From positions 1,736,001 to 1,800,000 of the forward strand of contig OZ037838.1 in NCBI GenBank assembly GCA_964035575.1: a stretch of DNA of 64,000 nt. Reading direction: 5' to 3'. This document shows, piece by piece, positions 447 through 40,011 of this stretch; the stretch's first letter is position 1; every line of letters starts with the position of its first letter. The notes beneath the pieces were generated by a model. It did no database searches, was not told the origin of the DNA, and worked only from the letters and a program-made list of their open reading frames with translations. Source of the DNA: Rhynchopus sp. YZ270_cl-10. Its lineage: Eukaryota. Made by a program: the position numbers and the translations under genes.

Positions 447-1610
447 ATGGATGTGACCTTTGTGCTGGAAGAGTCAGGCGTGACTGCGACAGTGGAGGTG
501 CCGTGCGAGGCGGACGTTGCAGCGGCAAAGGAGGTTGCGTGCACGGCGCTTGCTGTCTCGCCTGCGTCTGTCGAGATGCGCATCGGCACGCAGGTGCTGG
601 AGGGGACGTGCCGTCTGCAGGACACTGCGTTTGATGCAGGGGTGCAGGTTGTGCTTGCCCGCCGCTTTGCCGACATCAAGTGTCCTGCTAAGCTCAGTCT
701 GCCGCCTGGCTTGTCTCTCTTCTCGTTGTCTCCTTGTGGATCGCTCTGTCTCTATTTGTACTTTAATGGTTTCAATCTCGGTGGAGGTTCCAGTTTTGGT
801 GGCGTCGGCGTTGATACAGAAGCCTTCGAGACTGCCTTCGAGTTTGAAATCGAATTCGGTGGGCTTGGTCCAGCTGCCATCTCACGATGCAAGACACACT
901 GCTACATGGCGTTCAGGCGTTGTCTTGCCAAGGTTGCGCTTCCGGGTGGGGAGGTGGTCCGCAAAGTCGACGGCCTCTCGACGTGGGTGTTCGCGTGTGG
1001 CGGTGTTCTTATCTCCCAAGGCAAAGGCGGCGTCTCTGTGTATGACGAAGACCTGACGTTTCTCCTCACTCTCTCACACAAGGGGTGCAACGAGGGGAGC
1101 GACGTGGCACTGTCTGACTGTGGTGGGTGGGTGATCACCTCTTCCGGGAAGGAGAAGAACGCGCGTCTGTGGGATGTGAACACAGGTGAAGCTGTGGCAT
1201 GTGTGCCTGCGGATGGGAGGCGAGTGGCGCTTTCACGGTCTGCCTCTGTCTTTGCTGTGGAGTGCTCTCAGAAAGTGCAGCTCTATGACTGGAGTGGTGC
1301 GGCTCTTGGCAGCTTTGAAGAGGAGCTGTCTCGCGTCTTTGCCGTGCAGTTCACTCCGTGTGGGAAGTACGTCGTTGTTGGGTTTGTGAGTGGTGACATT
1401 GTTCTGGATGATGAGCGCGCCCTACACCAGTATGATGTGGCAACCATGTCCTGTGTGCGTGTGATACCAAATGCCAAGCAAGCATTTGCGATATCGCCGT
1501 GTTCACATGTGGTTTTGTTTGAGTCAGGAGAAAGTGACGACCTTGTGTCACAGCATCTGTACCCCTACTTGAGTGATGTTTCGGATGAAAACAGAGAAGA
1601 GTTGCCCTGA
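447..1610 (+). CDS. Ubiquitin-like domain + WD40-like 7-blade beta-propeller protein (array copy, YLSDVSDE-tail type)
   Basis: ATG of the conserved MDVTFVLEESG; ~72-aa beta-grasp-like pattern ending VQVVLARR; seven blades including SDCGGWVITSS..ARLWDVNTGE, VQLYDWSG and QFTPCGKY. Confidence 0.9.
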   Translation: MDVTFVLEESGVTATVEVPCEADVAAAKEVACTALAVSPASVEMRIGTQVLEGTCRLQDTAFDAGVQVVLARRFADIKCPAKLSLPPGLSLFSLSPCGSLCLYLYFNGFNLGGGSSFGGVGVDTEAFETAFEFEIEFGGLGPAAISRCKTHCYMAFRRCLAKVALPGGEVVRKVDGLSTWVFACGGVLISQGKGGVSVYDEDLTFLLTLSHKGCNEGSDVALSDCGGWVITSSGKEKNARLWDVNTGEAVACVPADGRRVALSRSASVFAVECSQKVQLYDWSGAALGSFEEELSRVFAVQFTPCGKYVVVGFVSGDIVLDDERALHQYDVATMSCVRVIPNAKQAFAISPCSHVVLFESGESDDLVSQHLYPYLSDVSDENREELP

Positions 1611-2128
1611 TGAGCACAACAGCGTGCAGCTCTATGATTGTAGCAGTGCGGCTCTTTGCAGCTTTGATGAAGCATGGGCACGTCTGGATGCGTATCCTCC
1701 TCTCACTCGTACTTCAGGACGCGCGTTTTGGGGGTTTTCGGGACTTTTGGGGTTTGAAACAAATAATGGATGGAAGAAAATGCTGATGGACTGAGCGATC
1801 AACAAACAATGAATCAATAAAGATGGGGGTACTTTAGTTTGATATTTTGAGGATAACGCCCACACCACCCTTTACCCCTCTTCCACTTTTTCTTTCCGTC
1901 TGTCGGTGGAATTGACAACAACATCACAAACACACAAAACAAAACAACGCACACCTCATCTCCTCCTACCCACATCTTCTTTTCTAGACAACAGCTCTCT
2001 GCGTACGACACTCTATGTCGTTCTTGGAGACTCACTTTGCATGTGTCCTGTCGCGATATTCTCCGAAGTGCATGCATCGTAAACTACAACACAAAACACA
2101 GTTACACACAAAACACAACACAACAACC

Positions 2129-3148
2129 ATGGACGTGACCATTCAAAGCTTCGATAAGAAGGACCACGTCATCGAGGTGGGTGTGGACGATACTGTGATG
2201 GACGTGCGTCGCAACGTGGCGTCTGCACTGGGGTTGCACGAAGACAGCTTCAGCATGAGGTTCGGAGGGGAGGTTATGGACGGAGCTGACGTGAGGAACC
2301 TGAGTGCTGGGGACACCATTGTGCTGACGAGTAAGAAGGGCGAGGCTATTGCAACACTTCGTGCATTGGGTGAGAAGGACCTGACGGAGGAGCGGCTGGC
2401 AAATGTGGGGGATCCTCAAGTGGCGTGTTTGCTTCTGCAGGCGGAGGTTGCGAGCGTGATCAAGTTCATGTCAGGAGAGGAGTTCAAGCATCTTGGTATT
2501 ACAAACGTATCTGTTGTGAGTCGCAGTTCGGACAGCACTTACAGTGGTGACAGGGACGTCACGGACAGTAATGAAACACGCGACTTCTCCAGGTTGGGCA
2601 TTGTGCAGGTGATGGAGACAAAGTTTTTTATTAACTGCAACATGTTGACAGCAATGGACCTGTCTGAGGTGACGAATGTCACCACAATACACGATGACTT
2701 TCTTCGTGATTGCACGGGGTTGACGACACTCGACCTATCTGGGTTGACAACTGCGACCACCATTGGCTCGCACTTCTTGTATTGTTGTGCGGCATTAACA
2801 ACAATCAACCTCTCTGGGTTGACAAATGTCACTTCAATTGGTGACAACTTCATGCACTCTTGTGCGGCGATGCACGGACTCGACCTATGTGGGCTCACCA
2901 ATGTCGAAACCATAGGTTCGCACTTCCTGTACAATTGCACGGGGTTAACACGACTCGACCTCTCTTGGTTGGGCTATGTCACTCAGATTGATGAATCATT
3001 TCTTGGGGGCTGCCAAGCAGTCCTCGTACATCGTTCACGACCCGAAAACTACAGCAGCCTCGTTGTGATGAGGCATTGCCCGTACTGTCGTACTCCCCCA
3101 CCCCCTTCACCCCCTTGTCCTTATTTTTTGGAGCCGGGGCTTATATAG
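2129..3148 (+). CDS. Ubiquitin-like domain + leucine-rich-repeat (BspA/LRR_5-like, ~25-aa period) protein, copy 1
   Basis: N-terminus MDVTIQSFDKKDHVIEVGVDDTVMDVRRNVASALGL..LSAGDTIVL has a ubiquitin-like pattern; repeats of the form LTTLDLSGLTNVTSIGDNFMHSCAA follow. Confidence 0.88.
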   Translation: MDVTIQSFDKKDHVIEVGVDDTVMDVRRNVASALGLHEDSFSMRFGGEVMDGADVRNLSAGDTIVLTSKKGEAIATLRALGEKDLTEERLANVGDPQVACLLLQAEVASVIKFMSGEEFKHLGITNVSVVSRSSDSTYSGDRDVTDSNETRDFSRLGIVQVMETKFFINCNMLTAMDLSEVTNVTTIHDDFLRDCTGLTTLDLSGLTTATTIGSHFLYCCAALTTINLSGLTNVTSIGDNFMHSCAAMHGLDLCGLTNVETIGSHFLYNCTGLTRLDLSWLGYVTQIDESFLGGCQAVLVHRSRPENYSSLVVMRHCPYCRTPPPPSPPCPYFLEPGLI

Positions 3149-3609
3149 GGCGGGTAAACAGTTTTGCGAGCCCGCAATTTTAAACTAAACGTTTTACACT
3201 CCGGCTATATTGTATAAGCTCGTAAACGCGTAGTTTGTATTTATACGGGGTTCCTATTTCGTGAATATTTAAATCTAAAGGTTTTTTTTAGCGCTGCAAA
3301 GTTTGCCAAATCATTATTTACACCTATTGTATTTGAAACAGGGTCGTGGCCGCTATCATATTCAGTAACCTGCAAGTTTTTGTTTCCTCCTTTTGTGCAC
3401 AACACAGGAAAACGGGAAACGTAAAAGGGGATAGGTTGCGAGTTGGAAACTTGTACGCTTCCACTCATGTTTTGAAGACTTGTTCACAAAGAAGATCCAA
3501 AATTGAAATAGAAAATGTAGTTTCAAATACAATACATTCAAAAGAACAGAAAGTAAGAAACGTGAAAGTCCTGAAGTACAGATGTTGATGTGAGAAGGGA
3601 GGAGCACAA

Positions 3610-6827: not shown

Positions 6828-7988
6828 ATGGATGTGACCTTTGTGCTGGAAGAGTCAGGCGTGACTGCGACAGTGGAGGTGCCGTGCGAGGCGGACGCTG
6901 CAGCGGCAAAGGAGGTTGCGTGCACGGCGCTTGCTGTCTCGCCTGCGTCTGTCGAGATGCGCATCGGCACGCAGGTGCTGGAGGGGACGTGCCGTCTGCA
7001 GGACACTGCGTTTGATTCAGGGGTGCAGGTTGTGCTTGCCCGCCGCTTTGCCGACATCAAGTGTCCTGCTGTGCACAGTCCGGAGGATAACTTTCCTAAC
7101 TTGCGTAACTCCTCGTTGTCTCCTTGTGGAACGCTCTGTCTCTATTTCCACTCGAAAGATTACCATACCAGTGCAGTCGTCGGCTTTGACACAGAAACCT
7201 TCGAGACTGCCTTCAAGTTTGAAATCGTACTTGGTGCGCGAGGTCCAGCTGCCATCTCACGGTGCAAGACACACTGCTACATGGCGTTCAGGCATTATCT
7301 TGCCAAGGTTGCGCTTCCGAGTGGGGAGGTGGTCCGTAAGGTTTACTGCCTCTCGACGTCGGTGTTTGCGTGTGGCGGTGTTGTTGTGTTGAAGGGCAAT
7401 GACGGCGTCTCTGTGTATGACGAAGACCTGACGTTGCTCCGCACTCTCTCGCACGAAGGGTGCGGCGAGGGGAGCGACGTGGCACTGTCTGACTGTGGTG
7501 GGTGGGTGATCACGTCCTCCTTCACGGAGCAAAATGCACGTCTGTGGGATGTGAACACAGGTGAAGCATGTGTTCCTGCGGATGGGTTGGGTACAGTGGC
7601 GCTTTCACGGTGTGCCTCTGTCTTTGCTGTGGGGTGCTCTGACAAAGTGCAGCTCTATGACTGGAGTGGTGCGGCTCTTGGCAGCTTTGAAAGGGAGGAG
7701 TCTCGCGTCTTTGCCGTGCAGTTCACTCCGTGTGGGAAGTACGTCGTTGTTGGCTTTGTGAGTGGTGACTTTGAAGTGTGTTCTGAAGAGTGCACCCTAC
7801 ACCAGTATGATGTGGCGACCATGTCCTGTGTGCATGTGATACCAAATGCCGACCAAGCTACGTTTGCGATATCGCCGTGTTCACGTGTGGTTTTGTTTGA
7901 GTCAGGAGAAGGTGCCAACCTTGTGTCACAGCATCTGTACCCCTACTTGAGTGATGTTTCGGATGAAAACAGAGAAGAGTTGCCCTGA
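6828..7988 (+). CDS. UBL + WD40 beta-propeller protein (YLSDVSDENREELP tail)
   Basis: MDVTFVLEESG start (an extra in-frame ATG lies at 6825); full blade set. Confidence 0.9.
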   Translation: MDVTFVLEESGVTATVEVPCEADAAAAKEVACTALAVSPASVEMRIGTQVLEGTCRLQDTAFDSGVQVVLARRFADIKCPAVHSPEDNFPNLRNSSLSPCGTLCLYFHSKDYHTSAVVGFDTETFETAFKFEIVLGARGPAAISRCKTHCYMAFRHYLAKVALPSGEVVRKVYCLSTSVFACGGVVVLKGNDGVSVYDEDLTLLRTLSHEGCGEGSDVALSDCGGWVITSSFTEQNARLWDVNTGEACVPADGLGTVALSRCASVFAVGCSDKVQLYDWSGAALGSFEREESRVFAVQFTPCGKYVVVGFVSGDFEVCSEECTLHQYDVATMSCVHVIPNADQATFAISPCSRVVLFESGEGANLVSQHLYPYLSDVSDENREELP

Positions 7989-8402: not shown

Positions 8403-9509
8403 ATGGATGTGACCTTTGTGCTGGAAGAGTCAGGCGTGACTGCGACAGTGGAGGTGCCGTGCGAGGCGGACGTTGCAGCGGCAAAGGAGGTTGCGTGCAC
8501 GGCGCTTGCTGTCTCGCCTGCGTCTGTCGAGATGCGCATCGGCACGCAGGTGCTGGAGGGGACGTGCCGTCTGCAGGACACTGCGTTTGGTGCAGGGGTG
8601 CAGGTTGTGCTTGCCTGTCCTCGCTTGGCCGACATCAAGTGTCCTGCTGAGTACAATAGACCAGGGCAGTCAGACCATTTTTCACTGTCGCGTTGTGGCA
8701 CGCTCTGTGTCTACTGTGTTCCTGATCATTTCGGGTTTGTTCGTAGACAGCAGGTTTGTGGCTTCGACACAGAAACCTTCAACACTGCTTTCGATTTCAC
8801 AATGGACCATTGTACGAGTAGTGCGCCTGCCATCTCACGGTGCAAGAGACGCTGCTACATGGCGTTCAGGCATTGTCTTCTCGAAGTTGCACTTCCTGGT
8901 GGGGAGGTGGTCCGCAAAGTCGACGGTTCCTGTGCGTCAGTGTCCGCGTGTGGTGGTGTTGTTGTCTCCCAAGTCTTTAGCAGCGTGTACGTGTATGACG
9001 AAGACCTGACGTTGCTCCGCACTCTCTCGCACGAAGGGTGCATGAAGGTGGCAGTGTCTGACTGTGGTGGGTGGGTTATCACCTCCTCCGACACGGAGCA
9101 GAACGTACGTCTGTGGGATGTGAACACAGGTGTTGCTGTTGCACGCGTACCTGCGGTTGGGACTCACGTGGCGCTTTCACGATCTGCCTCTGTCTTTGCT
9201 GTGGTGCGCTATCCCAAAGTGCAGCTCTACGACTGGAGTGGTGCGGCTCTTCGCAGCTTTGAAGAGGAGCAGTATGCAATCGTTGGCATGCAGTTCACTC
9301 CGTGTGGGAAGTACCTTGTGGTTGAGTTTTTGTGTGATGATGAAAACGAAATTCGTGCACTCCACCAGTATGATGTGGCGACCATGTCCTGTGTGCATGT
9401 GATACAGGATGTCTTCGATGCGTTTGCGATATCGCCGTGTTCACGTGTGGTTATGTTTCGTTCATCAGAAAGTACTGCCCTCCTGACCAGACATCTGTAC
9501 CCCTACTGA
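8403..9509 (+). CDS. UBL + WD40 beta-propeller protein (HLYPY* tail)
   Basis: Intact 368-aa paralogue. Confidence 0.9.
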   Translation: MDVTFVLEESGVTATVEVPCEADVAAAKEVACTALAVSPASVEMRIGTQVLEGTCRLQDTAFGAGVQVVLACPRLADIKCPAEYNRPGQSDHFSLSRCGTLCVYCVPDHFGFVRRQQVCGFDTETFNTAFDFTMDHCTSSAPAISRCKRRCYMAFRHCLLEVALPGGEVVRKVDGSCASVSACGGVVVSQVFSSVYVYDEDLTLLRTLSHEGCMKVAVSDCGGWVITSSDTEQNVRLWDVNTGVAVARVPAVGTHVALSRSASVFAVVRYPKVQLYDWSGAALRSFEEEQYAIVGMQFTPCGKYLVVEFLCDDENEIRALHQYDVATMSCVHVIQDVFDAFAISPCSRVVMFRSSESTALLTRHLYPY

Positions 9510-9680
9510 GCGATGCAGTCCACCCTGTGTGGGAAGTACCTCCTCGCTGTCGCTGAGTACTGCGGTGTGTTGCTATCGTGCGTTGCATCAGTATTGACGA
9601 TATCCACCCGCGCCCTACTGGAGTTCCTAAATTTGAGACATTTTTGTGACAGCACAGCCTCACACTGAGTCACAGTACGG

Positions 9681-15173: not shown

Positions 15174-16301
15174 ATGGATGTGACCTTTGTGCTGGAAGAG
15201 TCAGGCGTGACTGCGACAGTGGAGGTGCCGTGCGAGGCGGATGTTGCAGCGGCAAAGGAGGTTGCGTGCACGGCGCTTGCTGTCTCGCCTGCGTCTGTCG
15301 AGATGCGCATCGGCACGCAGGTGCTGGAGGGGACGTGCCGTCTGCAGGACACTGCGTTTGGTGCAGGGGTGCAGGTTGTGCTTGCCCGCTGCTTTGCCGA
15401 CATCAAGTGTCCTGCTGAGTACAGTGTAGAGGCGCCACCTGGAACGCAGCGGATGAATATGAATAGTTTAACGCTGTCTTTTTGTGGAGCACTCTGCCTC
15501 TTTACACAGAAGACACGCTATGTCACTGGCCTCGATACAGAAACCTTCAGCCCTGCCTTCAGGTTCAAAGTGGACTGTGGGATATATGGTGCGCCTGCCA
15601 TCTCACGGTGCAAGACACGCTGCTACCTGGCGTGTGGGGATGACTTACGCATGGTTGCACTTCCGGGTGGGGAGGTGCTCCGCAAGGTTGACCCCTCGTT
15701 CCAAGTGTTCGCGTGTGGCGGTGTTGTTGTCTCCCGTGGCGAAGGAAGCGTCTCTGTGTATGACGAAGACCTGACGTTGCTCCGCACTCTCTCTCACAAG
15801 GGCTGCGCCCAGTGGTGTGGGAGAGTGGCAGTGTCGGACTGTGGTGGGTGGGTGATCACCTCCTCCCTCAGTGAGAACAACGCACGTCTGTGGGATGTGA
15901 ACACAGATCAAGCTGTGGCATGTGTGCCTGCGGATGGGGAGTGCGTGGCCCTTTCACGGTCTGCCTCTGTCTTTGCTGTGGTGTGCTCTAACGAAGTACA
16001 GCTCTATGACTGGAGTGGCGCGGCTCTTCGCGGCTTTGATCAGGAGGAGTCTCGTGTCTGTGCCGTGCAGTTCAGTCCGTGTGGGAAGTACGTCGTTGTT
16101 TGCTTTGAGAGTGGTGAAGTATTTTGTGAAGAGTACACTCTGCACCAGTATGATATGGCGACCATGTCCTGTGTGCGTGTGATACAAGACAGCAATGGTG
16201 TATTTTCTATATCGCCATGTTCACGTGTGGTTGTGTTCAAGGCAGCAGGAGGTGACGCAGGAAGTAACGTCCTTGTCACAAGGCATCTGTACCCCTACTG
16301 A
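15174..16301 (+). CDS. UBL + WD40 beta-propeller protein
   Basis: Intact 375-aa paralogue. Confidence 0.9.
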   Translation: MDVTFVLEESGVTATVEVPCEADVAAAKEVACTALAVSPASVEMRIGTQVLEGTCRLQDTAFGAGVQVVLARCFADIKCPAEYSVEAPPGTQRMNMNSLTLSFCGALCLFTQKTRYVTGLDTETFSPAFRFKVDCGIYGAPAISRCKTRCYLACGDDLRMVALPGGEVLRKVDPSFQVFACGGVVVSRGEGSVSVYDEDLTLLRTLSHKGCAQWCGRVAVSDCGGWVITSSLSENNARLWDVNTDQAVACVPADGECVALSRSASVFAVVCSNEVQLYDWSGAALRGFDQEESRVCAVQFSPCGKYVVVCFESGEVFCEEYTLHQYDMATMSCVRVIQDSNGVFSISPCSRVVVFKAAGGDAGSNVLVTRHLYPY

Positions 16302-25335: not shown

Positions 25336-26454
25336 ATGGATGTGACCTTTGTGCTGGAAGAGTCAGGCGTGACTGCGACAGTGGAGGTGCCGTGCGAGGC
25401 GGACGTTGCAGCGGCAAAGGAGGTTGCGTGCACGGTGCTTGCTGTCTCGCCTGCGTCTGTCGAGATGCGCATCGGCACGCAGGTGCTGGAGGGGACGTGC
25501 CGTCTGCAGGACACTGCGTTTGATGCAGGGGTGCAGGTTGTGCTTGCCCGTCCTCGTTTTGCCGACATCAAGTGTCCTGGCGGGTACAATGCGAAAGAGG
25601 GGGCGCAGGAAGTGTCGCTGTCGCGTTGTGGAACGCTCTGCATGTATCGTGACAACAGGCTCATTTGTGGCTTCGACACCGAAACCTTCAACACTGCCTT
25701 CGAGTTCACACTGGCTTCTTCTGTGTACCGCGGAGCCATCTCGCAGTGCAAGACACGCTGCTACCTGGTGTGCAGGGAAGGTATACATGTGTTTGCGCTT
25801 CCGGGTGGTGAGGTGCTCCGAAAAGTCAACGCCGTCTCAGAGTCTGTGTCCGCGTGTAGCGGTGTTGTTGTCTCCCAAGGCACAGACGGCGTCTCTGTGT
25901 ATGACGAAGACCTGACGTTGCTCCGCTCTCTCACACACGAAGGGTGCACTGGCATCGCAGTGTCGGACTGTGGTGGGTGGGTGATCACCTCCTCCGACAC
26001 GGAGAAGAACGCACGTCTGTGGGATGTGAACACAGGTGAATCTGTGGCATGTGTGCCTGTATACAGCAAGACAGATACAGCAAGACGGTGTAGTGTTGTT
26101 GCACTTTCACGGTCTGCCTCTGTCTTTGCTGTGGCGAGCTCTGGCGGCGTGCAGCTCTATGACTGGAGTGGTGCGGCTCTTCGCGTTGTTGTTGTGGGTG
26201 CGCATGTTGTGGGCATGCAGTTCACCCCATGTGGGAAGTACTTTGTAGTCCACTTATTATTAAATTTATGTGTGACTGATCATAGTTTGAAATTCGAGCT
26301 TCGCCAGTATGATGTTGCGAACATGTCCTGTGTGCTCAGGATTGAGAATGTTGAGAACCCATTGTTTGCGATATCGCCATGTTCACGTGTGGTTGTGTGT
26401 CAGGAAGGCTCCTCCATTGTCACCAGACATCTGTCCCCACACAACAGTGAGTGA
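25336..26454 (+). CDS. UBL + WD40 beta-propeller protein
   Basis: Intact paralogue with an inserted loop YSKTDTARR. Confidence 0.9.
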   Translation: MDVTFVLEESGVTATVEVPCEADVAAAKEVACTVLAVSPASVEMRIGTQVLEGTCRLQDTAFDAGVQVVLARPRFADIKCPGGYNAKEGAQEVSLSRCGTLCMYRDNRLICGFDTETFNTAFEFTLASSVYRGAISQCKTRCYLVCREGIHVFALPGGEVLRKVNAVSESVSACSGVVVSQGTDGVSVYDEDLTLLRSLTHEGCTGIAVSDCGGWVITSSDTEKNARLWDVNTGESVACVPVYSKTDTARRCSVVALSRSASVFAVASSGGVQLYDWSGAALRVVVVGAHVVGMQFTPCGKYFVVHLLLNLCVTDHSLKFELRQYDVANMSCVLRIENVENPLFAISPCSRVVVCQEGSSIVTRHLSPHNSE

Positions 26455-28140: not shown

Positions 28141-29298
28141 ATGGATGCGACCTTTGTGCTGGAAGAGTCAGGCGTGACTGCGACAGTGGAGGTGCCGTGC
28201 GAGGCGGACGTTGCAGCGGCAAAGGAGGTTGCGTGCACGGCGCTTGCTGTCTCGCCTGCGTCTGTCGAGATGCGCATCGGCACGCAGGTGCTGGAGGAGA
28301 CGTGCCGTCTGCAGGACACTGCGTTTGATGCAGGGGTGCAGGTTGTGCTTGCCCGCCGCTTTGCCAACATCAAGTGTCCTGCTGCGCACAGTCTGCCGGA
28401 AGACATGTGCAGCTTGCATAATTTCTCGTTGTCTTCTTGTGGATCGCTCTGTGTCTATTACTACTCGGAAGATTACATTTACCATACCAGTGCCGTCGTC
28501 GGCTTTGACACAGAAACCTTCGAGACTGCCTTCAAGTTTGAAGTCGAATTCGGTGGGCTTGGTCCAGCTGCCATCTCACGGTGCAAGACACACTGCTACA
28601 TGGCGTTCAGGCATTGTCTTGCCAAGGTTGCGCTTCCGGGTGGGGAGGTGGTCCGCAAAGTCGACGGCCTCTCGACGTGGGTGTTCGCGTGTGGCGGTGT
28701 TGTTGTCTCCCAAGGCAAAGACGGCGTCTCTGTGTATGACGAAGACCTGACGTTGCTCCGCACTCTCTCACACGAAGGGTGCGCTGTCATTGCAGTGTCT
28801 GACTGTGGTGGATGGGTGATCACCTCCTCCAACACGGAGCAGAACGCACGTCTGTGGGATGTGAACACAGGTGAAGCCGTTGCATGTGTGCCTGCGGATG
28901 GGAGACACGTAGCCCTTTCACGGTCTGCCTCTGTCTTTGCTGTGGAGTGCTCTCAGAAAATGCAGCTCTATGACTGGAGTGGTGCGGCTCTTCGTAGCTT
29001 TGAAGAGGAGGAGTCTCGCGTCTTTGCCGTGCAGTTCACTCCGTGTGGGAAGTACGTCGTTGTTGGGTTTGAGAGTGGTGACTTTGTTCTGAATGCTTAT
29101 TTAGAGCACACCCTACACCAGTATGACGTGGCGACCATGTCCTGTGTGCATGTGATACCAAATGCCGACCAAGCTACGTTTGCGATATCGCCGTGTTCAC
29201 GTGTCGTTTTGTTTGAGTCAAGAATCAGTGACAAGCTTGTGTCACAGCATCTCTACCCCTACTTGAGTGATGTTTCGGATGAAGACAGAGAAGAGTAG
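28141..29298 (+). CDS. UBL + WD40 beta-propeller protein (YLSDVSDE tail)
   Basis: Intact paralogue, starts MDATFVLEESG. Confidence 0.9.
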   Translation: MDATFVLEESGVTATVEVPCEADVAAAKEVACTALAVSPASVEMRIGTQVLEETCRLQDTAFDAGVQVVLARRFANIKCPAAHSLPEDMCSLHNFSLSSCGSLCVYYYSEDYIYHTSAVVGFDTETFETAFKFEVEFGGLGPAAISRCKTHCYMAFRHCLAKVALPGGEVVRKVDGLSTWVFACGGVVVSQGKDGVSVYDEDLTLLRTLSHEGCAVIAVSDCGGWVITSSNTEQNARLWDVNTGEAVACVPADGRHVALSRSASVFAVECSQKMQLYDWSGAALRSFEEEESRVFAVQFTPCGKYVVVGFESGDFVLNAYLEHTLHQYDVATMSCVHVIPNADQATFAISPCSRVVLFESRISDKLVSQHLYPYLSDVSDEDREE

Positions 29299-29792: not shown

Positions 29793-30884
29793 ATGGATGT
29801 GACCTTTGTGCTGGAAGAATCAGGCGTGACTGCGACAGTGGAGGTGCCGTGCGAGGCGGACGTTGCAGCGGCAAAGGAGGTTGCGTGCACGGCGCTTGCT
29901 GTCTCGCCTGCGTCTGTCGAGATGCGCATCGGCACGCAGGTGCTGGAGGGGACGTGCCGTCTGCAGGACACTGCGTTTGATGCAGGGGTGCAGGTTGTGC
30001 TTGCCCGCCGCTTTGCCAACATCAAGTGTCCTGCTGCCTACCCTTCCGAGTCTATCCGAGGAAGGTTCGTTCTGTCGTGTTGTGGAGCGCTGTGCCTCTA
30101 CTCTCCCTGCGAGAATGGGGCTGTTGTCGGCTTCGACACAGAAACCTTCAACACTGCCTTCGAGTTCACACTGGCCTCTTCTGTGTCCAGCGCACCTGCC
30201 ATCTCGCAGTGCAAGACACGCTGCTACCTGGCCTGTATGGAAGGCCTTCTCGAGGTTGCGCTTCCGGGTGGGGAGGTGCTCCACAAAGTCGACGGCGTCT
30301 CGAGAGCAGTGTTCGCGTGTGGCGGTGTTGTTGTCTCGAAGAGCACTGACGGCGTCTCTGTGTATGACGAAGACCTGACGTTGCTCCGCTCTCTCTCGCA
30401 CGAAGGGTGCACTGGCATTACAGTGTCTGACTGTGGTGGGTGGGTGATCACCTCCTCCAAGAACGAGAAGAACGCACGTCTGTGGGATGTGAACAGAGGT
30501 GAAGCTGTGGCATGTGTGCCTGTATCAAGGCCTGCTGTCGCGCTTTCACGGTGTGCCTCTGTCTTTGCTGTGGTGGGGCTGAACAGAAGCGTGGAGCTCT
30601 ATGACTGGAGTGGTGCTCTTCGCGGTGTTGTTGTGGGTGTTAATGTTAAAGGCATGCAGTTCACCCCATGTGGGAAGTACTTTGTGGGAAGCTTTTTGTC
30701 CTATGATTTGATGACTAAATACGAGCTTCGCCAGTACAATGTTGCGAACATGTCCTGTGTGCTCAGGATTGAGAATGTTAGTAGCTCATCGTTTGCGATA
30801 TCGCCATGTTCACGTGTGGTTGTGTGTCAGGAAGGCCCCTCCATTGTCACCAGACATCTGTACCCACACAGCAGTCTGTCTTAA
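29793..30884 (+). CDS. UBL + WD40 beta-propeller protein
   Basis: Intact paralogue. Confidence 0.9.
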   Translation: MDVTFVLEESGVTATVEVPCEADVAAAKEVACTALAVSPASVEMRIGTQVLEGTCRLQDTAFDAGVQVVLARRFANIKCPAAYPSESIRGRFVLSCCGALCLYSPCENGAVVGFDTETFNTAFEFTLASSVSSAPAISQCKTRCYLACMEGLLEVALPGGEVLHKVDGVSRAVFACGGVVVSKSTDGVSVYDEDLTLLRSLSHEGCTGITVSDCGGWVITSSKNEKNARLWDVNRGEAVACVPVSRPAVALSRCASVFAVVGLNRSVELYDWSGALRGVVVGVNVKGMQFTPCGKYFVGSFLSYDLMTKYELRQYNVANMSCVLRIENVSSSSFAISPCSRVVVCQEGPSIVTRHLYPHSSLS

Positions 30885-31278: not shown

Positions 31279-32364
31279 ATGGATGTGACCTTTGTGCTGG
31301 AAGAGTCAGGCATGACTGCGACAGTGGAGGTGCCGTGCGAGGCGGACGTTGCAGCGGCAAAGGAGGTTGCGTGCACGGCGCTTGCTGTCTCGCCTGCGTC
31401 TGTCGAGATGCGCATCGGCACGCAGGTGCTGGAGGGGACGTGCCGTCTGCAGGACACTGCGTTTGATGCAGGGGTGCAGGTTGTGCTTGCCCGCCGCTTT
31501 GCCAACATCAAGTGTCCTGCTGAGTACAGTGCATCACCGGATACGCAACACTTATCGCTGTCGGGTTGTGGAACGCTCTGCATTTATGGGGACAACAGTG
31601 GGGTCATTTGTGGCTTCGACACCGAAACCTTCAACACTTCCTTCGAGTTCACACTGCCCTCTTCTGTGTCCAGCGCACCTGCCATCTCGCAGTGCAAGAC
31701 ACACTGCTACCTGGCGTGTGAGGACGATGATAGTTTATGCGAGGTTGCGCTTCCGGGCGGGGAGGTGCTCCGCAAAGTCGACGGCGTCTCGTACTCGGTG
31801 TTTGCGTGTGGCGGTGTTGTTGTCTCACAGGACCATAAGGGCGTCTCTGTGTATGACGAAGACCTGACGTTGCTCCGCACTCTCTCACACGAAGGATGCA
31901 GGAAGGTGGCAGTGTCTGACTGTGGTGGGTGGGTGATGACCTCCTCCCTCAGTGAGAAGAAGGCACGTCTGTGGGATGTGAACACAGGTGAAACTGTGGC
32001 ATGTGTGCCTGTATCAAAGCGTTGTGGTGTTGTCGCGCTCTCACGATGTGACTCTGTCTTTGCTGTGGTGGGGGTGAACAAAAGCGTGCTCCTCTATGAC
32101 TGGAGTGGTGCGGCTCTTCGCAGTGGTTTTCTGGGTGCGGGCATTAAGGGCATGCAGTTCACCCCATGTGGGAAGTACCTTGTGGTCAACTTCTGGTTCA
32201 GGGACGAGCTTCGCCAGTACAATGTTGCGAACATGTCCTGTGTGCTCAGGGTTGAGAATGTTAGCAAGTCATCGTTTGCGATATCGCCATGTTCACGTGT
32301 GGTGGTGTGTCAGGAAGGCTCCTCCATTGTCACCAGACACCTGTCCCCACACAACAGTGAGTGA
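31279..32364 (+). CDS. UBL + WD40 beta-propeller protein
   Basis: Intact paralogue; a point change creates an alternative in-frame ATG at 31255. Confidence 0.9.
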   Translation: MDVTFVLEESGMTATVEVPCEADVAAAKEVACTALAVSPASVEMRIGTQVLEGTCRLQDTAFDAGVQVVLARRFANIKCPAEYSASPDTQHLSLSGCGTLCIYGDNSGVICGFDTETFNTSFEFTLPSSVSSAPAISQCKTHCYLACEDDDSLCEVALPGGEVLRKVDGVSYSVFACGGVVVSQDHKGVSVYDEDLTLLRTLSHEGCRKVAVSDCGGWVMTSSLSEKKARLWDVNTGETVACVPVSKRCGVVALSRCDSVFAVVGVNKSVLLYDWSGAALRSGFLGAGIKGMQFTPCGKYLVVNFWFRDELRQYNVANMSCVLRVENVSKSSFAISPCSRVVVCQEGSSIVTRHLSPHNSE

Positions 32365-34004: not shown

Positions 34005-35164
34005 ATGGATGTGACCTTTGTGCTAGAAGAGTCAGGCGTGACTGCGACAGTGGAGGTGCCGTGCGAGGCGGACGTTGCAGCGGCAAAGGAGGTTGCGTGC
34101 ACGGCGCTTGCTGTCTCGCCTGCGTCTGTCGAGATGCGCATCGGCACGCAGGTGCTGGAGGGGACGTGCCGTCTGCAGGACACTGCGTTTGATGCAGGGG
34201 TGCAGGTTGTGCTTTCCCGCCCTCGCTTTGCCGACATCAAGTGTCCTGCTAAACACAGTGTGCCAGACAACTTGTGCAACTTCTCGCTGTCTCCTTGTGG
34301 AACGCTCTGTCTCTATTTCCACTTGGAACGTTCCAATCCCAGTGGTGGTATCGGTAGTACCGGTGTCGGCTTTGACACAGAAACCTTCGAGACTGCCTTT
34401 AAGTTTGAAACCAAATGTCGTGGGCTTGGTCGAGCTGCCATCTCACGGTGCAAGACACACTGCTACTTGGCGTTCAGGCGTTGTCTTGCCAAGGTTGCGC
34501 TTCCGGGTGGGGAGGTGCTCTGCAAAGTCGACGGCAACTTTCACTCAGTGTTCACGTGTGGTGTTGTTGTTGTCTCCCAAGGTGAAGACGGCGTCTCTGT
34601 GTATGACGAAGACCTGACGTTGCTCCGCTCTCTCTCTCGCACAAAGGGTGCATGAAGGTGGCAGTGTCTGACTGTGGTGGGTGGGTGATCACCGCCTCCC
34701 TCAGTGAGAACAACGCACGTCTGTGGGATGTGAACACGGGTGAAGCTGTGGCATGTGTGCCTGCGGATGAGAGGTTCGTGGCGCTTTCACGATGTGCCTC
34801 TGTCTTTGCTGTGGTGTGCTCTGAAAAAGTGCAGCTCTACGACTGGAGTGGTGCGGCTCTTGGCAGCTTTGAAGAGGAGGAGTCTCGCGTCTTTGCCGTG
34901 CAGTTCACTCCGTGTGGGAAGTACGTCGTTATTGGCTTTGTGAGTGGTGACTTTGTTCTGGATTCTGAAGAGCACACCCTACACCAGTATGATGTGGCGA
35001 CCATGTCCTGTGTGCATGTGATACCAAATGCCGACCAAGCTACGTTTGCGATATCGCCGTGTTCACGTGTCGTTTTGTTTGAGTCAGGAGATAGTGACGA
35101 CCTTGTGTCACAGCATCTCTACCCCTACTTGAGTGATGTTTCGGAAGAAAACAGAGAAGAGTAG
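34005..35164 (+). pseudogene. UBL + WD40 paralogue with a +2 frameshift
   Basis: An extra CT unit in ctccgctctctctctcgc (~34627-34639) splits the ORFs 33927..34655 and 34652..35164; otherwise full length. Confidence 0.8.
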
Positions 35165-35542
35165 CCCTCATGAGCACAACAGCGTGCAGCTCTATGATTG
35201 TAGCAGTGCGGCTCTTTGCAGCTTTTATGAAGCATGCGTATGTCAGGGCGTGCAGTCCACCCTGTGTGGGAAGTACCTCCTCGCTGTCGCTGACTACTGC
35301 GGTGTGTTGCTATCGTGCGTTGCATCAGTATTTGCGTTGCACCCTCTACCTACTAGCCTGTGAGGGAATTCATTTTGAGACATTTTCACGATTAACGACC
35401 ACACCACCCTATTCCTCTCTTTTTCACTTTTTCCTTGTTCCAACCCTCTTTTGTTATGGAAACTGCAGACGCAACTAAAACATCGCAAACACACAAAACA
35501 AAGCAACCCACACCTCATCACTCAGCATAAGAAGACAAAACA

Positions 35543-36649
35543 ATGGATGTGACCTTTGTGCTGGAAGAGTCAGGCGTGACTGCGACAGTGGAGGTGCCGT
35601 GCGAGGCGGACGTTGCAGCGGCAAAGGAGGTTGCGTGCACGGCGCTTGCTGTCTCGCCTGCGTCTGTCGAGATGCGCATCGGCACGCAGGTGCTGGAGGG
35701 GACGTGCCGTCTGCAGGACACTGCGTTTGATGCAGGGGTGCAGATTGTGCTTGCCCGCCGCACTGCCGACATCAAGTGTCCTGCTGAGTACAGTCTGCAG
35801 AAGGTGACAGACAATTGCTCGCTGTCGGGTTGTGGAACGCTCTGCATTTACCGTGACAACAGTGGCCGCGTTAGTGGCTTCGACACCGAAACCTTCAACA
35901 CTTCCTTCGAGTTCACACTAGCCTCTTCTGTTGTCAACGCGCCTGCCATCTCGCAGTGCAAGACACGCTGCTACCTGGTGCGCGAGGAAGGCTTACGCGT
36001 GGTTGCGCTTCCGAGTGGGGAGGTGATCCGCAACGTCGCTGGCCTCTCGATGTCAGTGTTCGCGTGTGGCGGTGTTGTTGTCTTGCAAGTCCTGGGCGGC
36101 GTCTCTGTGTATGACGAAGACCTGACGTTGCTTCGCACTCTCTCTCACGAAGGGTGCGCTGTCATTGCAGTGTCGGACTGTGGTGGGTGGGTGATCACCT
36201 CATCTTGTGTGCAGAGAGACGCACGTCTGTGGGATGTGAACACAGGTGAAGCTCTTGCATGTGTGCCTGTATCAAGACGTTGTCGTGTTGTCGCGCTTTC
36301 ACGGTGTGCCTCTGTCTTTGCTGTGGTGGGGCTGAACAGAAGCGTGGAGCTCTATGACTGGAGTGGTGCGGCTCTTCGCACTATCGTTGTGGGTGAGAAT
36401 GTTGTGGGCATGCAGTTCACCCCATGTGGGAAGTACCTCGTCGTCAACTTAGCATTAGCTTATTGTATGACTGATTCTAGTTTGAAATACGAGCTTCGCC
36501 AGTATGATGTTGCGAACATGTCCTGTGTGCTCAGGATTGAGAATGTGAGCAGCCCATCGCTTGCGATATCGCCATGTTCACGTGTGGTTGTGTGTCAGGA
36601 AGGCTCCTCCATTGTCACCAGACATCTGTACCCATACAACAGTGAGTGA
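35543..36649 (+). CDS. UBL + WD40 beta-propeller protein
   Basis: Intact 368-aa paralogue. Confidence 0.9.
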   Translation: MDVTFVLEESGVTATVEVPCEADVAAAKEVACTALAVSPASVEMRIGTQVLEGTCRLQDTAFDAGVQIVLARRTADIKCPAEYSLQKVTDNCSLSGCGTLCIYRDNSGRVSGFDTETFNTSFEFTLASSVVNAPAISQCKTRCYLVREEGLRVVALPSGEVIRNVAGLSMSVFACGGVVVLQVLGGVSVYDEDLTLLRTLSHEGCAVIAVSDCGGWVITSSCVQRDARLWDVNTGEALACVPVSRRCRVVALSRCASVFAVVGLNRSVELYDWSGAALRTIVVGENVVGMQFTPCGKYLVVNLALAYCMTDSSLKYELRQYDVANMSCVLRIENVSSPSLAISPCSRVVVCQEGSSIVTRHLYPYNSE

Positions 36650-36931: not shown

Positions 36932-38039
36932 ATGGATGTGACCTTTGTGCTGGAAGAGTCAGGCGTGACTGCGACAGTGGAGGTGCCGTGCGAGGCGGAT
37001 GTTGCAGCGGCAAAGGAGGTTGCGTGCACGGCGCTTGCTGTCTCGCCTGCGTCTGTCGAGATGCGCATCGGCACGCAGGTGCTGGAGGAGACGTGCCGTC
37101 TGCAGGACACTGCGTTTGGTGCAGGGGTGCAGGTTGTGCTTGCCCGCCGCTTTGCCAACATCAAGTGTCCTGCTGAGTACAGTGCAGATCGTAAGTTGTG
37201 TAACTTATTGTCACTCTCGCGTTGTGGAACGCTTTGTGTCTTCCGTGACGGTTTGGGACTTTTTGTGGCTTCGACACAGAAACCTTCGAGACTGCCTTCC
37301 GATTCGGCGCTGACAGTTGGTTAAGTGCATGCGGTGAGCCTGCCATCTCGCAGTGCATGACACGCTGCTACCTGGCATGCGAGGAAGGCTTACACGAGGT
37401 TGCGCTTCCGGGTCGGGAGGTGCTCCGCAAGTCGACGGCTTGTCGAAGTCGGTATTCGCGTGTGGTGGTGTTGTTGTCTCCCAAGGTGAAGACGGCGTCT
37501 CTGTGTATGACGAAGACCTGACGTTGCTCCGCTCTCTCTCGCACGAAGGGTGCACAGACATGGCAGTGTCTGACTGTGGTGGGTGGGTGATCACCTCCTC
37601 CAAAGTGGAGGACAAAGCACGTCTGTGGGATGCGCACGCAGGTGAAGCTGTTACATGTGTGCCTGCGGCGGGCGTATGCAAAGTCGCGCTTTCACGGTGT
37701 GCCTCCGTCTTTGCTGTGGTGGGCCGTGGCAAAGTGCAGCTCTATGACTGGAGTGGTGCGGCTCTTCGCAGCGTTGTTGTGGGTGCGAGCATTGACGGCG
37801 TGCAGTTCACCCCATGTGGGAAGTACTTTGTCGTCATCTTATTATTAGCCTATTGTATGACTGATCAGAGTGCAAAATACGAGCTTCGCCAGTATGATGT
37901 TGCGAACATGTCCTGTGTGCTCAGGATTGAGAATATTAGTAGCTCATCGTTTGCGATATCGCCATGTTCACGTGTGGTGGTGTGTCAGGAAGGCTCCTCC
38001 ATTGTCACCAGACATCTGTCCCCACACAACAGTGGGTGA
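36932..38039 (+). pseudogene. UBL + WD40 paralogue with two frameshifts
   Basis: The frame changes at ~37250-37263 and again at ~37430 (cgcaagtc versus cgcaaagtc in paralogues). Confidence 0.8.
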
Positions 38040-38898
38040 TGTTTTTTTTCCCGCGTTGGTGGGTGAGGGGAGATAAAACAATTATCCCCCCTTTTTCCCC
38101 TTTTGTTTTTGTGCTGAGTATGTAATACATCTGTTGGATATGAAGGGCTCTTTATCCAAACGGCAAGTGGATGCGTAATAATTTTATTGTATACAAACAT
38201 ACGAAGCGGTACGCGTACGGTTTGTTAGGAAATAATACAAACCGAAATGATTGGGCTCTTTCGGATTGAATGATTTGAATAGTGTGTGTGTGTGTTCGGA
38301 AATAGATACTGTCTCTTTTCTGTCTTGTTTAATGTTCATTGTTTCCCTTTCATTGCCCTTTGCTTGCTTCCCGACTCCAATTCAATCAATACTCACAGAG
38401 GGGGGGCCAAAAATACAATTAGCGTTTCTCGTTTTTCAAAAAAAAAATAATAAAAGAAGAAAGAAAGTAAGCACGCATATCCGTCCCTCTGTGTATGATG
38501 CACTTGTGAAGCCTAATAGTGCACTGTTGTTGCTTTTTATCGCACAAGTATACCTGTTAATACAATTACAGCACACAGATGCAGCAAAATGGCTCGCTTT
38601 TGCGGGTGGCGAAATGTCTTCTCTTTGTTCTTCGACTCAGCTGCTTTAAGCGCGAGTTGTTTTACGGATCCAGGAGCAGGAGCTAGAGTATTTGCGTTGC
38701 ACCCTCGACCTACTAGCCTGTGAGGGAATTCATTTTGAGACATTTTGAGGATAACGACCACACCACCCTTTACCTCTCTTTTTCACTTTTGCTTTGTTAA
38801 AACCTCTCCTGTTGCTGAAACCATCACAAACACACAAAACAAAACAACCCACACCTCACCTCCTCCCAACAGAGGTGGAACAAGAAGAAGACAAAACA

Positions 38899-40011
38899 AT
38901 GGATGTGACCTTTGTGCTGGAAGAGTCAGGCGTGACTGCGACAGTGGAGGTGCCGTGCGAGGCGAACGTTGCAGCGGCAAAGGAGGTTGCGTGCACGGCG
39001 CTTGCTGTCTCGCCTGCGTCTGTCGAGATGCGCATCGGCACGCAGGTGCTGGAGGGGACGTGCCGTCTGCAGGACACTGCGTTTGATGCAGGGGTGCAGG
39101 TTGTGCTTGCCCGCCCTCGCTTTGCCGACATCAAGTGTCCTGCTGAGTACAGTCTGCCGGAAGACTTGTGTAGCTTCTCCCTGTCTCCTTGTGGAACGCT
39201 TTGTGTCTTCCGTGACGACTTGTCTGGGATTTTTTGTGGCTTCAACACAGAAACCTTCGACACTTTCTTCCGATTCGACGATGACAGGTGGTTAAGTGCA
39301 TGCAGCGCGCCTGCCATTTCGGCTTGCAAGACACGCTGCTACCTGCCGTGCGAGGAAGCCTTACACGAGGTTTCCCTTCCGGGTGGGGAGGTGCTCCGCA
39401 AAGTCGAAGGCGTCTCGCACTCAGTGTTCGCGTGTGGCGGTGTTGTTGTCTCCCAAGGCAAAGACGGCGTCTCTGTGTATGACGAAGACCTGACGTTGCT
39501 CCGCACTCTCTCGCACGAAGGGTGTGTGCGCTTGGCAGTGTCTAACTGTGGTGGGTGGGTGATCACCTCCTCTAGAGTGGAGGACAAAGCACGTCTGTGG
39601 GATGTGAACACAGGTGAAGCTGTTACATGTGTGCTTGCGGCGGGCGAACGCAAAGCGGCGCTTTCACGGTCTGCCTCTGTCTTTGCTGTGGCGAGCTGTG
39701 GCAGCGTGCAGCTCTACGACTGGAGTGGTGCGGCTCTTCGCAGCGTTGTTGTGGGCGCGAGCATTGACGGCATGCAGTTCACCCCATGTGGGAAGTACCT
39801 CGTCGTCAACCTATTTTTAGCTTTTTGTATGACTGATTATAGTTTTAAATACGAGCTTCGCCAGTATGATGTTGCGAACATGTCCTGTGTGCTCAGGATT
39901 GAGAATATTAGCAAGTCATCGTTTGCGATATCGCCATGTTCACGTGTGGTTGTGTGTCAGGAAGGCTCCTCCATTGTCACCAGACATCTGTACCCACACA
40001 ACAGTGAGTGA
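38899..40011 (+). CDS. UBL + WD40 beta-propeller protein (last array copy)
   Basis: Intact paralogue. Confidence 0.9.
   Translation: MDVTFVLEESGVTATVEVPCEANVAAAKEVACTALAVSPASVEMRIGTQVLEGTCRLQDTAFDAGVQVVLARPRFADIKCPAEYSLPEDLCSFSLSPCGTLCVFRDDLSGIFCGFNTETFDTFFRFDDDRWLSACSAPAISACKTRCYLPCEEALHEVSLPGGEVLRKVEGVSHSVFACGGVVVSQGKDGVSVYDEDLTLLRTLSHEGCVRLAVSNCGGWVITSSRVEDKARLWDVNTGEAVTCVLAAGERKAALSRSASVFAVASCGSVQLYDWSGAALRSVVVGASIDGMQFTPCGKYLVVNLFLAFCMTDYSFKYELRQYDVANMSCVLRIENISKSSFAISPCSRVVVCQEGSSIVTRHLYPHNSE

Follow-up and report, generated by a model that had tools for sequence, protein, structure and literature searches.

Patchwise sequence exchange among tandem paralogues encoding predicted seven-bladed propellers in Rhynchopus sp. 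YZ270_cl-10

The stretch of Rhynchopus sp. YZ270_cl-10 DNA analysed here (64,000 nucleotides, hereafter the window) contains 16 paralogues on the same (+) strand, 14 intact and two frameshifted, and raises the question of how these copies came to share short variable patches across otherwise different backgrounds. The initial annotation had explained the sharing by segmental gene conversion that recombines loop cassettes, as in VSG mosaics or chicken immunoglobulin genes. The intact copies have predicted products of 361-387 residues. The copies, each named after its start, and the relics of further copies are as follows.

447..1610, + strand: c447, 387 residues, clade A, intact
6828..7988, + strand: c6828, 386 residues, clade A, intact
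8403..9509, + strand: c8403, 368 residues, intermediate lineage, intact
15174..16301, + strand: c15174, 375 residues, intermediate lineage, intact
16742..17830, + strand: c16742, 362 residues, clade B, intact, with a clade-A-like tract
18714..19817, + strand: c18714, 367 residues, clade B, intact
21102..22187, + strand: c21102, 361 residues, intact; 5' end c16742-like, 3' end c31279-like, with c18714-like inserts
22887..23993, + strand: c22887, 368 residues, clade B, intact
25336..26454, + strand: c25336, 372 residues, clade B, intact
28141..29298, + strand: c28141, 385 residues, clade A, intact, with a clade-B-like tract
29793..30884, + strand: c29793, 363 residues, clade B, intact
31279..32364, + strand: c31279, 361 residues, clade B, intact
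34005..35164, + strand: c34005, clade A, frameshifted
35543..36649, + strand: c35543, 368 residues, clade B, intact; used for the structure model
36932..38039, + strand: c36932, clade B, frameshifted
38899..40011, + strand: c38899, 370 residues, clade B, intact
1..174, + strand: relic 3' fragment of one more copy, at the window edge
29310-29417 and 29530-29627, + strand: a pair of gene relics in the spacer that follows c28141
1616-1672, 7994-8050, 9513-9541, 16305-16333, 20776-20841 and 35176-35283: similar short relics

The frame of c34005 is broken by an insertion of 2 nt near 34628 (the first stop in frame lies at 34653), and that of c36932 by a 4-nt deletion near 37251 and a 1-nt deletion near 37429. 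The array probably continues upstream of the window. No dedicated array of donor cassettes was found in the window, whose spacers hold only a few relic fragments. Clades A and B are interleaved, and the nearest relative of 13 of the 16 copies lies 3-10 copies away.

Sharing was assessed in a nucleotide alignment of all 16 copies (A2) and a protein alignment of the 14 intact ones. All 11 earlier statements of motif sharing were recovered in the copies named, including that of SENNARLW with the frameshifted c34005, for which only nucleotides were compared (A2 columns 747-770). Of the four motifs cited as linking c28141 with c447, all were present and one also occurs in c6828. The background groupings held as well: c28141 is 90.9% identical to c447 and about 76-77% identical to c18714 and c35543, and c21102 is 94.3% identical to c31279 and 89.3% to c16742. 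The following mosaic tracts interrupt these backgrounds.

17407..17490, + strand: c447-like (clade A) tract in c16742; A2 columns ca. 743-850; 3SEQ-type exact p 2.7e-10
21604..21619, + strand: 16-nt micro-tract in c21102, identical to c18714 and c35543; outer bounds 21600-21628
21729..21739, + strand: main switch in c21102 from c16742-like to c31279-like, approximate; A2 columns ca. 705-715
28774..28811, + strand: tract in c28141 identical to c18714 and c35543; A2 columns 678-727; outer bounds 28771-28826

The tract in c16742 has a core identical to c447 in A2 columns 740-761. In the micro-tract of c21102 (A2 columns 566-581), the 8 positions that differ from c16742 and c31279 all match c18714 and c35543; this copy also has one large 5'/3' switch. 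The patch that c28141 shares with c18714 and c35543 is identical to theirs in nucleotides throughout its tract, and shared patches generally match at the nucleotide level, synonymous positions and indels included. Tract lengths range from about 16-25 nt for the smallest up to about 140 nt. In several tracts the alignment itself shows a pair of breakpoints within 16-60 nt, a pattern that marks gene conversion as opposed to a single crossover. Tract ends sit in invariant blocks, which correspond in the structural model to the loops on one face of the propeller and the strands next to them. This agrees with the proposal that exchange runs between invariant turns, but it is expected in any case, since ends can be located only where copies are identical. 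The swaps of hypervariable patches are real, but exchanged tracts are not restricted to these patches.

Statistical tests also pointed to recombination. The PHI statistic of the 16 copies was 0.649, whereas permuted data averaged 0.750 (z = -13.8; reached by 0 of 2000 permutations), and in 25 of 120 pairs the longest identical fragment exceeded all 1000 site permutations, where about 0.12 pairs would be expected by chance; both tests assume exchangeable sites and can be inflated by strong rate heterogeneity along the gene, an effect reflected in the extended identity of the invariant 5' module and of the 3' end in clade B. The fragments of these 25 pairs span 22-242 columns, and the pairs include 18714/28141, 447/16742, 15174/22887 and 22887/34005. 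Site compatibility drops with distance along the gene. In a 3SEQ-type test, 178 of 3360 triplets, which are not independent events, fell below a Bonferroni threshold of 0.05, and each of the 16 copies was the 'child' in at least one significant triplet. The initial annotation had held that a single tree for all blades would speak against exchange. In AU tests on five segments, each segment rejected the ML trees of the other four (20/20; p 0.014 to 1e-86), these trees being estimated from the same short segments. The full-length tree was rejected by four of the five (AU p 0.035, 0.0066, 0.0068 and 0.028), and segment S1 did not reject it (AU p 0.067). Phylogenetic conflict along the gene and two-ended tracts that match a non-sister copy exactly, by which gene conversion between paralogues is recognised, are both present. 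Patchwork mosaicism among the copies is thus borne out by PHI, 3SEQ-type, AU and identical-fragment analyses, and segmental exchange between paralogues is significant at the nucleotide level.

Long identical blocks occur in the family, which numbers more than 400 members, and the mosaic pattern recurs in proteins on several contigs. We compared 12 patches in 99 of 120 listed relatives. Each patch had 90-99 distinct versions among the 99, most of them unique, so that divergence within patches, and not the re-use of a small set of cassettes, accounts for most of the diversity. The idea of combinatorial cassettes therefore stands only in part: some re-use occurs, but it is not the main source of diversity. 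There were 77 identical-patch sharings, 27 between nearest relatives and 31 between members that rank each other 10th or lower over the remainder of the protein; 10 of these 31 fall in patches that together would be expected to show about 0.17 identical pairs under column shuffling. In four of the 12 patches, column shuffles expect 1.1-1.8 identical pairs. Identical patches of 9-15 residues join members whose identity elsewhere is at or below background. The correlation between patches is near zero family-wide, a value that could also stem from a star-like radiation with saturation.

The C-terminal part of each gene product is predicted with high confidence to form a seven-bladed WD40 propeller. 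In an AlphaFold model of c35543, 27 strands lie between residues 82 and 361, and pLDDT for residues 81-368 is about 82-96 per 10-residue block, with 70 in the last block. Foldseek aligned the model with G-beta, LIS1 and WDR5 (E about 1e-16, TM 0.6-0.79, about 300 aligned columns), and the predicted structure has the seven four-stranded blades and closed propeller of the WD40 fold. No Pfam WD40 or propeller model scored above its gathering score (for instance PF25174, 22.7 bits with a cut-off of 305; PF00400, 22 with 27); judged by sequence, the propeller is divergent from curated Pfam models. No tandem repeat was found within the gene, and the best blade-to-blade match within one protein was 27.6% over 29 residues (E 0.03). 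Of the 26 loops after the first strand, 12 with an entropy of 0.09-0.83 bits alternate strictly with 13 of 1.5-3.2 bits, and one long loop is mixed (1.44 bits). This alternation along the chain suggests that one propeller face varies. In WD40 proteins the top face is by convention the ligand-binding face, and the hypervariable loops would all lie on one face, by that convention the top, an assignment made from chain topology and not from measured coordinates. In the eight closest pairs, pN/pS was 1.36 in variable columns (above 1 in 8/8 pairs) versus 0.20 in the framework, the former being biased upwards because the columns were picked for amino-acid variability.

The propeller is preceded by an N-terminal module of some 72 residues that hardly varies between copies, synonymous sites included. 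Mean pairwise dS was 0.017 for codons 1-72 and 0.240 for the framework; for hypervariable codons it was 0.94, a high value that may partly reflect misalignment. The conservation extends into about 130 nt of 5'UTR, and the homogenised 5' module is present at every copy.

35413..35757, + strand: homogenised 5' module, example from c35543, consisting of a 5'UTR segment of about 130 nt that contains a polypyrimidine tract and AG, followed by the first ca. 215 nt of coding sequence

The N-terminal module is likely to be ubiquitin-like. Relatives with 26-30% identity gave sub-cut-off Pfam matches to the ubiquitin family (PF00240, E 7e-5 and 0.007; PF23603, 0.0025; PF11976, 0.019), and these relatives align over the N-terminus. 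The N-terminus of the window's own copies gave no Pfam ubiquitin match, and its AlphaFold pLDDT is 28-50. No hydrophobic, signal-like N-terminus was found (hydropathy over 19 residues peaks at 0.68 in the first 30). Separately, neighbouring LRR genes have an N-terminus that matches PF00240 below threshold (E 1e-4).

Taken together, these results are quite probably explained by evolutionary gene conversion between paralogues with some unequal crossing-over, under diversifying selection on a presumed binding face. Short stretches of about 16-140 nt and some larger segments would be copied between paralogues by ectopic homologous recombination. Conversion may homogenise the 5'UTR, N-terminal module and framework and occasionally move loop-coding patches from copy to copy, while selection for diversity would keep those patches different, so that exchange between copies is likely to keep diversifying one propeller face in a family of more than 400 genes. 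That unequal crossing-over and block duplication were the main process, with single crossovers, multi-gene block copies and little true conversion, is unlikely. The large switch in c21102, the interleaved clades with distant nearest relatives and the relic 3' fragments in the spacers would fit such a process, but single crossovers cannot place two close breakpoints in an unchanged background, and homogenising the 5' module of every copy takes repeated non-reciprocal exchange. Most likely both conversion and unequal crossing-over with block duplication act. The absence of any exchange, with shared patches arising by convergence or by tree-like descent at uneven rates, is exceedingly improbable. 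Chance matches are possible in short patches where few positions vary, as the column shuffles indicate, and variable columns have pN/pS above 1; nucleotide identity at synonymous positions and indels, the strong conflict between segment trees and the identical patches in distant members speak against it, and the AU, tract and fragment results already contradict it.

It is very unlikely that the assembler made the chimeric copies by joining reads of different paralogues. A family of this size with long identical blocks invites such errors, word depth at conserved blocks reaches hundreds of thousands, and the public short-read unitigs here are 31-312 nt long, none of the listed pieces bridging a mosaic junction. 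Assembly switches, however, are single breakpoints in long identical stretches and do not yield inserts of 16 nt that are flanked on either side, within about 30 nt, by copy-specific differences; the pattern also recurs in proteins across several contigs, the reading frame is open in 14 of 16 copies, and local matches of unitigs from two studies to the window show no differences. Programmed or somatic diversification, in which the cell would assemble new mosaics from the array at a high rate and clonal descendants would differ, is quite unlikely. It would suit the very short double-breakpoint tracts between invariant blocks, the nearly unlinked patches and the invariance of the 5' module, and donors could be supplied by the two frameshifted copies and by several relics. 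But 14 of 16 copies are intact with their own 5'UTR and start codon, which argues against a single acceptor with silent donors, and the N-terminus is not signal-like. A stable locus is also suggested by four sequencing runs, drawn from two studies, which reproduce the window to at least 97% and for which only 9 substitutions and 3 indels are listed across 11.7 kb, although rare variants would not be visible in unitigs. All the data are accounted for by ordinary evolutionary conversion, and VSG-like or immunoglobulin-like switching is unsupported.

Under the preferred reading of evolutionary conversion, the family would be a germline-encoded repertoire of cytosolic binding proteins. We found no published description of this propeller family, and we regard it as possible, though doubtful, that it is an undescribed intracellular recognition repertoire with a ubiquitin-like handle, a hypervariable face, patchwise conversion and possibly a second, LRR arm. 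More than 400 propellers would then share an invariant face and a handle, each presenting its own hypervariable face. Through the handle, a bound target would be docked onto ubiquitin or proteasome machinery, and patchwise conversion, perhaps at a raised or even somatic rate, would generate new specificities. Such a system would stand beside the NLR, HNWD or VLR systems as their protist counterpart with a new architecture, and the neighbouring LRR genes, with their sub-threshold ubiquitin-family N-terminus, could be the second arm.

In VSG mosaics and chicken immunoglobulin V conversion, short templated tracts are copied with framework blocks as homology and pseudogenes as possible donors; these systems are somatic and programmed, with one expressed acceptor and surface or secreted products, and clonal descendants differ, as in Borrelia vls. 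The analogy drawn in the initial annotation is not supported here: unlike VSGs, these proteins begin with an invariant module without a signal peptide-like segment, and unlike the chicken locus, the array has no single acceptor with promoterless donors, its 14 intact copies each having a 5'UTR and start. The NLR-LRR families of plants and fish, like Plasmodium var genes, are large germline repertoires for recognition that use repeat scaffolds; they comprise hundreds of clustered paralogues with a conserved scaffold and variable binding residues, in which ectopic recombination is a source of new combinations. By analogy, the present family may resemble them in its many clustered paralogues, conserved scaffold and ectopic recombination, with a different scaffold and domain partner.

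For trypanosomatid tandem arrays, a survey describes concerted evolution, gene conversion and inconsistent phylogenies across array regions, the arrays being general ones mostly read as dosage (PMC1855330). As in that account, same-strand tandem copies are homogenised here alongside divergence among duplicates, but a constant framework is combined with a hypervariable face. The closest analogue appears to be the fungal HNWD WD-repeat genes. As portrayed for the HNWD/NWD genes het-d, het-e as well as het-r of Podospora anserina, the WD-repeat propeller of these intracellular STAND NTPases, which carry an N-terminal effector domain, performs recognition, positions under diversifying selection lie on the interaction surface, and concerted evolution is accompanied by reshuffling within and between paralogues, near-identical WD repeats shuffling whole and varying in number (PMC1805685, PMC2873952). 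Set beside that portrayal, the family described here shares the exchange between paralogues and, judged by topology, the grouping of variable residues on a propeller surface. It differs in that no NACHT, NB-ARC or other NTPase was among its Pfam matches (E up to 0.1), its partner domain is small and likely ubiquitin-like, its blades are dissimilar within a protein and do not form a tandem repeat, blade number is fixed at seven with sub-blade patches exchanged between genes, and its members number more than 400 compared with 10.

Sixteen paralogous propeller genes, named here by their start positions (c447 and so on), form a same-strand array in the window's first 40 kb. The genes in the array share one strand and lack introns, and open reading frames of 361-387 codons were found in 14 of the 16 copies; c34005 carries a 2-nt insertion near 34628, and c36932 carries deletions of 4 nt near 37251 and 1 nt near 37429. 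Three non-propeller genes break up the array. A relic 3' fragment at its left edge suggests, from sequence, that the array may continue upstream of the window. Further short relics lie in the spacers, often right behind a stop codon, and match the gene interior (query ~791-898) or the 3' end.

Genes and relics of the array and its surroundings
1-174: relic 3' fragment of a propeller gene
447, 6828, 8403, 15174, 16742, 18714, 21102, 22887, 25336, 28141, 29793, 31279, 34005, 35543, 36932 and 38899 (starts), forward strand: propeller paralogues
2129-3148 and 4181-5200: two LRR genes, 97.4% identical (duplicated block, 1974-3325 versus 4019-5376)
10707-12677: B-box and LRR gene, 656 residues, interrupting the array
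40460-42931, forward strand (that of the array): RhoGEF (DH) gene, 823 residues, directly after the array (PF00621, E 4e-16)
49420-50808: zinc alcohol-dehydrogenase-family gene (PF08240, E 7e-21)
1616-1672, 7994-8050, 9513-9541, 16305-16333, 20776-20841, 29310-29417, 29530-29627 and 35176-35283: short propeller-gene relics in spacers

The two LRR genes encode a BspA-type LRR domain (PF13306, E 1e-12) behind an N-terminus with a weak, below-cut-off ubiquitin-family match (PF00240, E 1e-4). Like the propeller genes, this pair thus combines a small N-terminal module with a repeat scaffold, and its 5' part has a third, partial copy at 5624-5940 (87%). In the product of 10707-12677, a long BspA-type LRR region (PF13306, E 5e-34) is accompanied by a B-box-like zinc-binding match at the N-terminus (E 0.002, below cut-off).

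The initial annotation had claimed that hypervariable patches are shared between otherwise different paralogues. Every one of its sharing statements held in the alignments, which covered the 14 intact proteins and, at the nucleotide level, all 16 genes. Thus c28141 groups with c447, its closest relative overall (90.9% nucleotide identity), yet has a patch otherwise found in c18714 and c35543; similarly, c21102 is closest to c31279 (94.3%) and c16742 (89.3%), yet has a patch of c18714 and c35543. In the shared patches, nucleotide identity extends to synonymous positions and to an indel.

Mosaic tracts, with columns of the nucleotide alignment of all 16 copies (A2) and window positions
c28141, identical to c18714/c35543: A2 678-727; 28774-28811 (outer bounds 28771-28826)
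c21102, identical to c18714/c35543 at 8 of the 8 positions that differ from its closest relatives: A2 566-581; 21604-21619
c16742, clade-A (c447-like) tract: A2 ~743-850; 17407-17490

Recombination statistics agreed with these readings. On 310 informative gap-free sites, PHI was 0.649, compared with a mean of 0.750 in permuted data (z = -13.8; 0 of 2000 permutations), and the share of compatible site pairs dropped with distance, being 55% within 10 nt and 34-40% beyond 200 nt. In a 3SEQ-type maximum-descent test with exact p values, 178 of 3360 triplets passed Bonferroni 0.05 and all 16 copies occurred as 'child', the best p value being that of c31279 (9e-16), followed by c21102 (2e-13), c28141 (3e-11) and c16742 (3e-10). 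A GENECONV-like check found 25 of 120 pairs whose longest identical fragment was reached by 0 of 1000 site permutations; these fragments span 22-242 columns, and the pairs include four that the initial annotation had named (18714/28141, 447/16742, 15174/22887 and 22887/34005). When maximum-likelihood trees were built for five segments in a GARD-like check, they differed, and the AU test rejected the trees of other segments in 20 of 20 comparisons. The full-length tree was rejected by four of the five segments, S1 being the one that did not reject it (p 0.067). Sites along the gene are not exchangeable, triplets overlap, and the data tested also supplied the trees; even so, a single tree clearly does not explain all blades. 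Patch mosaicism is real and statistically robust.

The 5' module behaves differently from the rest of the gene. About 130 nt of 5'UTR and ~215 nt at the start of the coding sequence are near-identical across all copies, and mean pairwise dS was 0.017 for codons 1-72, 0.240 for framework codons and 0.94 for the most variable codons. Since constraint on the protein alone cannot cut dS fourteen-fold, repeated homogenising conversion is the simplest cause of the likeness of the module; selection acting on the RNA itself is a possible alternative cause of the low dS. The region of ~130 nt upstream of all 16 start codons (e.g. 35413-35542) is a conserved A/C-rich leader, present as a variant in three copies. 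In most copies a polypyrimidine tract and AG lie ahead of it, resembling a splice-acceptor-type signal.

The mosaics are best explained by non-reciprocal exchange between paralogues over evolutionary time. The two-ended tracts of 16-140 nt indicate gene conversion. Unequal crossing-over and block duplication probably act as well, as suggested by the spacer relics, by the way the two clades interleave along the array, and by c21102, which has one large switch. Conversion would homogenise the framework and the 5' module, selection would keep the loops different, possibly helped by breaks in homology where the loop-coding patches have diverged, and now and then a patch would be carried across between copies. 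Similarity depended only weakly on physical distance (Mantel r = -0.24, p = 0.026), and nearest relatives were mostly non-adjacent; for the most part, exchange is not with neighbouring copies. One spacer relic, upstream of c21102, is a perfect 34-nt copy of the end of c8403.

The initial annotation had likened the process to VSG mosaics or chicken Ig conversion, with loop cassettes recombined combinatorially. Support covers the gene-conversion part of this reading and does not extend to the programmed, combinatorial part. There is no sign of programmed or somatic switching: intact copies with their own start are in the majority, no array of donor cassettes is present, and the N-terminus is not signal-like. 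The likeness to VSG or chicken Ig fails on the features that were testable. That the mosaics are an assembly artefact is argued against by their form. Logan contigs (four runs, two studies) covered every one of the 30 bins of 20800-32500 at >=97% with few differences locally, in pieces too short to bridge the junctions (at most 312 nt in 20800-32500, and 31-70 nt over 21520-21780). Within 21520-21780, 2 of 29 bins were uncovered in all four runs, and among the listed pieces none spans 21604-21619 with a further 31 nt on each side. In each of these runs, the stretch 27056-27837 of the c25336-c28141 spacer reached a summed word depth (87,000-520,000) at least that of the propeller gene's own conserved blocks; it probably belongs to a highly repeated element.

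With 98 family sequences as input, AlphaFold modelled a confident propeller (residues ~76-368) that matches G-beta, LIS1 and WDR5. Per-residue entropy, computed from the same 98 sequences, was laid on the predicted strands. Among the 26 loops after the first strand, 12 are invariant (0.09-0.83 bits) and 13, many of them with indels, are hypervariable (1.5-3.2 bits), in strict alternation, with one long loop mixed. Since consecutive loops of a beta-meander lie on opposite faces, one face of the propeller would be variable and the other constant. An invariant loop follows the blade ending in a Trp-Asp dipeptide, and by the usual WD40 convention we infer that the variable loops would lie on the top, ligand-binding face of the model. 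In the eight closest pairs, pN/pS was 1.36 in variable columns (>1 in 8 of 8 pairs) versus 0.20 in the framework, a diversifying signal that is only suggestive because these columns were selected for variability.

A protein search returned 417 matches at E <= 0.001 among 7998 candidates scored. None of the 120 matches listed has a name, and they come from a few long contigs; clustering at 50% gave 28 clusters below E 1e-30. Full-length relatives occur at 26-33% identity, several with sub-threshold ubiquitin-family matches at the N-terminus; past these, the search reached generic multi-WD40 proteins only, and an atlas search gave generic WD40 clusters, all <0.9. Family-wide diversity was analysed at the protein level in 99 of the 120 listed members (of at least 417), 21 having been removed by a 340-400 residue filter. 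In these 99, the N-terminal module is >=95% conserved at nearly every position, and for every one of the 12 variable patches 90-99 distinct versions occur, so the diversity does not come from a small set of re-used cassettes. Identical patches exceeded the column-shuffle expectation in 11 of 12 patches. Among 77 identical-patch sharings, 27 were between nearest relatives, and 31 joined members that rank tenth or lower for each other elsewhere, with background identity at or below the median of 0.66; 10 of these 31 fall in patches where ~0.17 pairs are expected by chance in total. Patch-to-patch similarity correlated poorly (mean r 0.17 between adjacent patches and 0.04-0.17 at greater separation), which could also result from a saturated star-like radiation. 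One relative outside the window (P0010, 439 residues) has an apparent internal duplication of ~70 residues across the first blades, which would have arisen through unequal recombination in this family.

Conversion between tandem paralogues is familiar, and the mosaicism here is a further example; the interest rests on the propeller family itself, the exchange process being ordinary for tandem families. The family is very large and unnamed, and joins a constant 5' module to a propeller of which one face is hypervariable and the other invariant. This modelled layout is that expected of a large diversified binding repertoire, of which the fungal HNWD allorecognition genes are the best-studied WD40 case. 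Eukaryotes build large receptor repertoires in only a few known ways, to which the family, if it serves in recognition, would contribute a new scaffold. The array would also be a compact natural system for measuring the effects of short-tract conversion and selection on binding surfaces. Searches of a limited full-text collection gave no account of a family in which a ubiquitin-like domain is joined to a WD40 propeller that has a hypervariable face, and the family appears to be undescribed.

The Podospora HNWD reports describe a WD-repeat domain that determines recognition specificity, concerted evolution of repeats within and between ten paralogues, and diversifying selection on four surface positions per repeat (PMC1805685, PMC2873952). 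HNWD is the nearest described system; the propeller family is similar in working and is not a member. HNWD proteins carry an effector and NACHT, whereas the propeller family has a small N-terminal module and no NTPase domain; its blades are fixed at seven, without near-identical internal repeats, and it exchanges sub-blade patches between genes. HNWD-style shuffling of whole repeats inside one gene is ruled out, since a propeller gene has no such repeats. For tandem arrays of Trypanosoma brucei, one report likewise describes region-dependent phylogenies and concerted evolution (PMC1855330).

In the window, no Rfam matches at gathering thresholds and no tRNAs were found. A reading of 53176-54123 as a sugar-phosphate isomerase was dropped, as it lacks Pfam support. 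The nearest atlas clusters of the gene at 49420-50808 are bacterial glutathione-independent formaldehyde dehydrogenases (score 0.99), making it a bacterial-like gene in a eukaryotic context. The 684-residue open reading frame at 60642-62696 has no Pfam family; it has a Cys-rich N-terminal part and, by eye, three apparent internal repeats of ~120 residues each.
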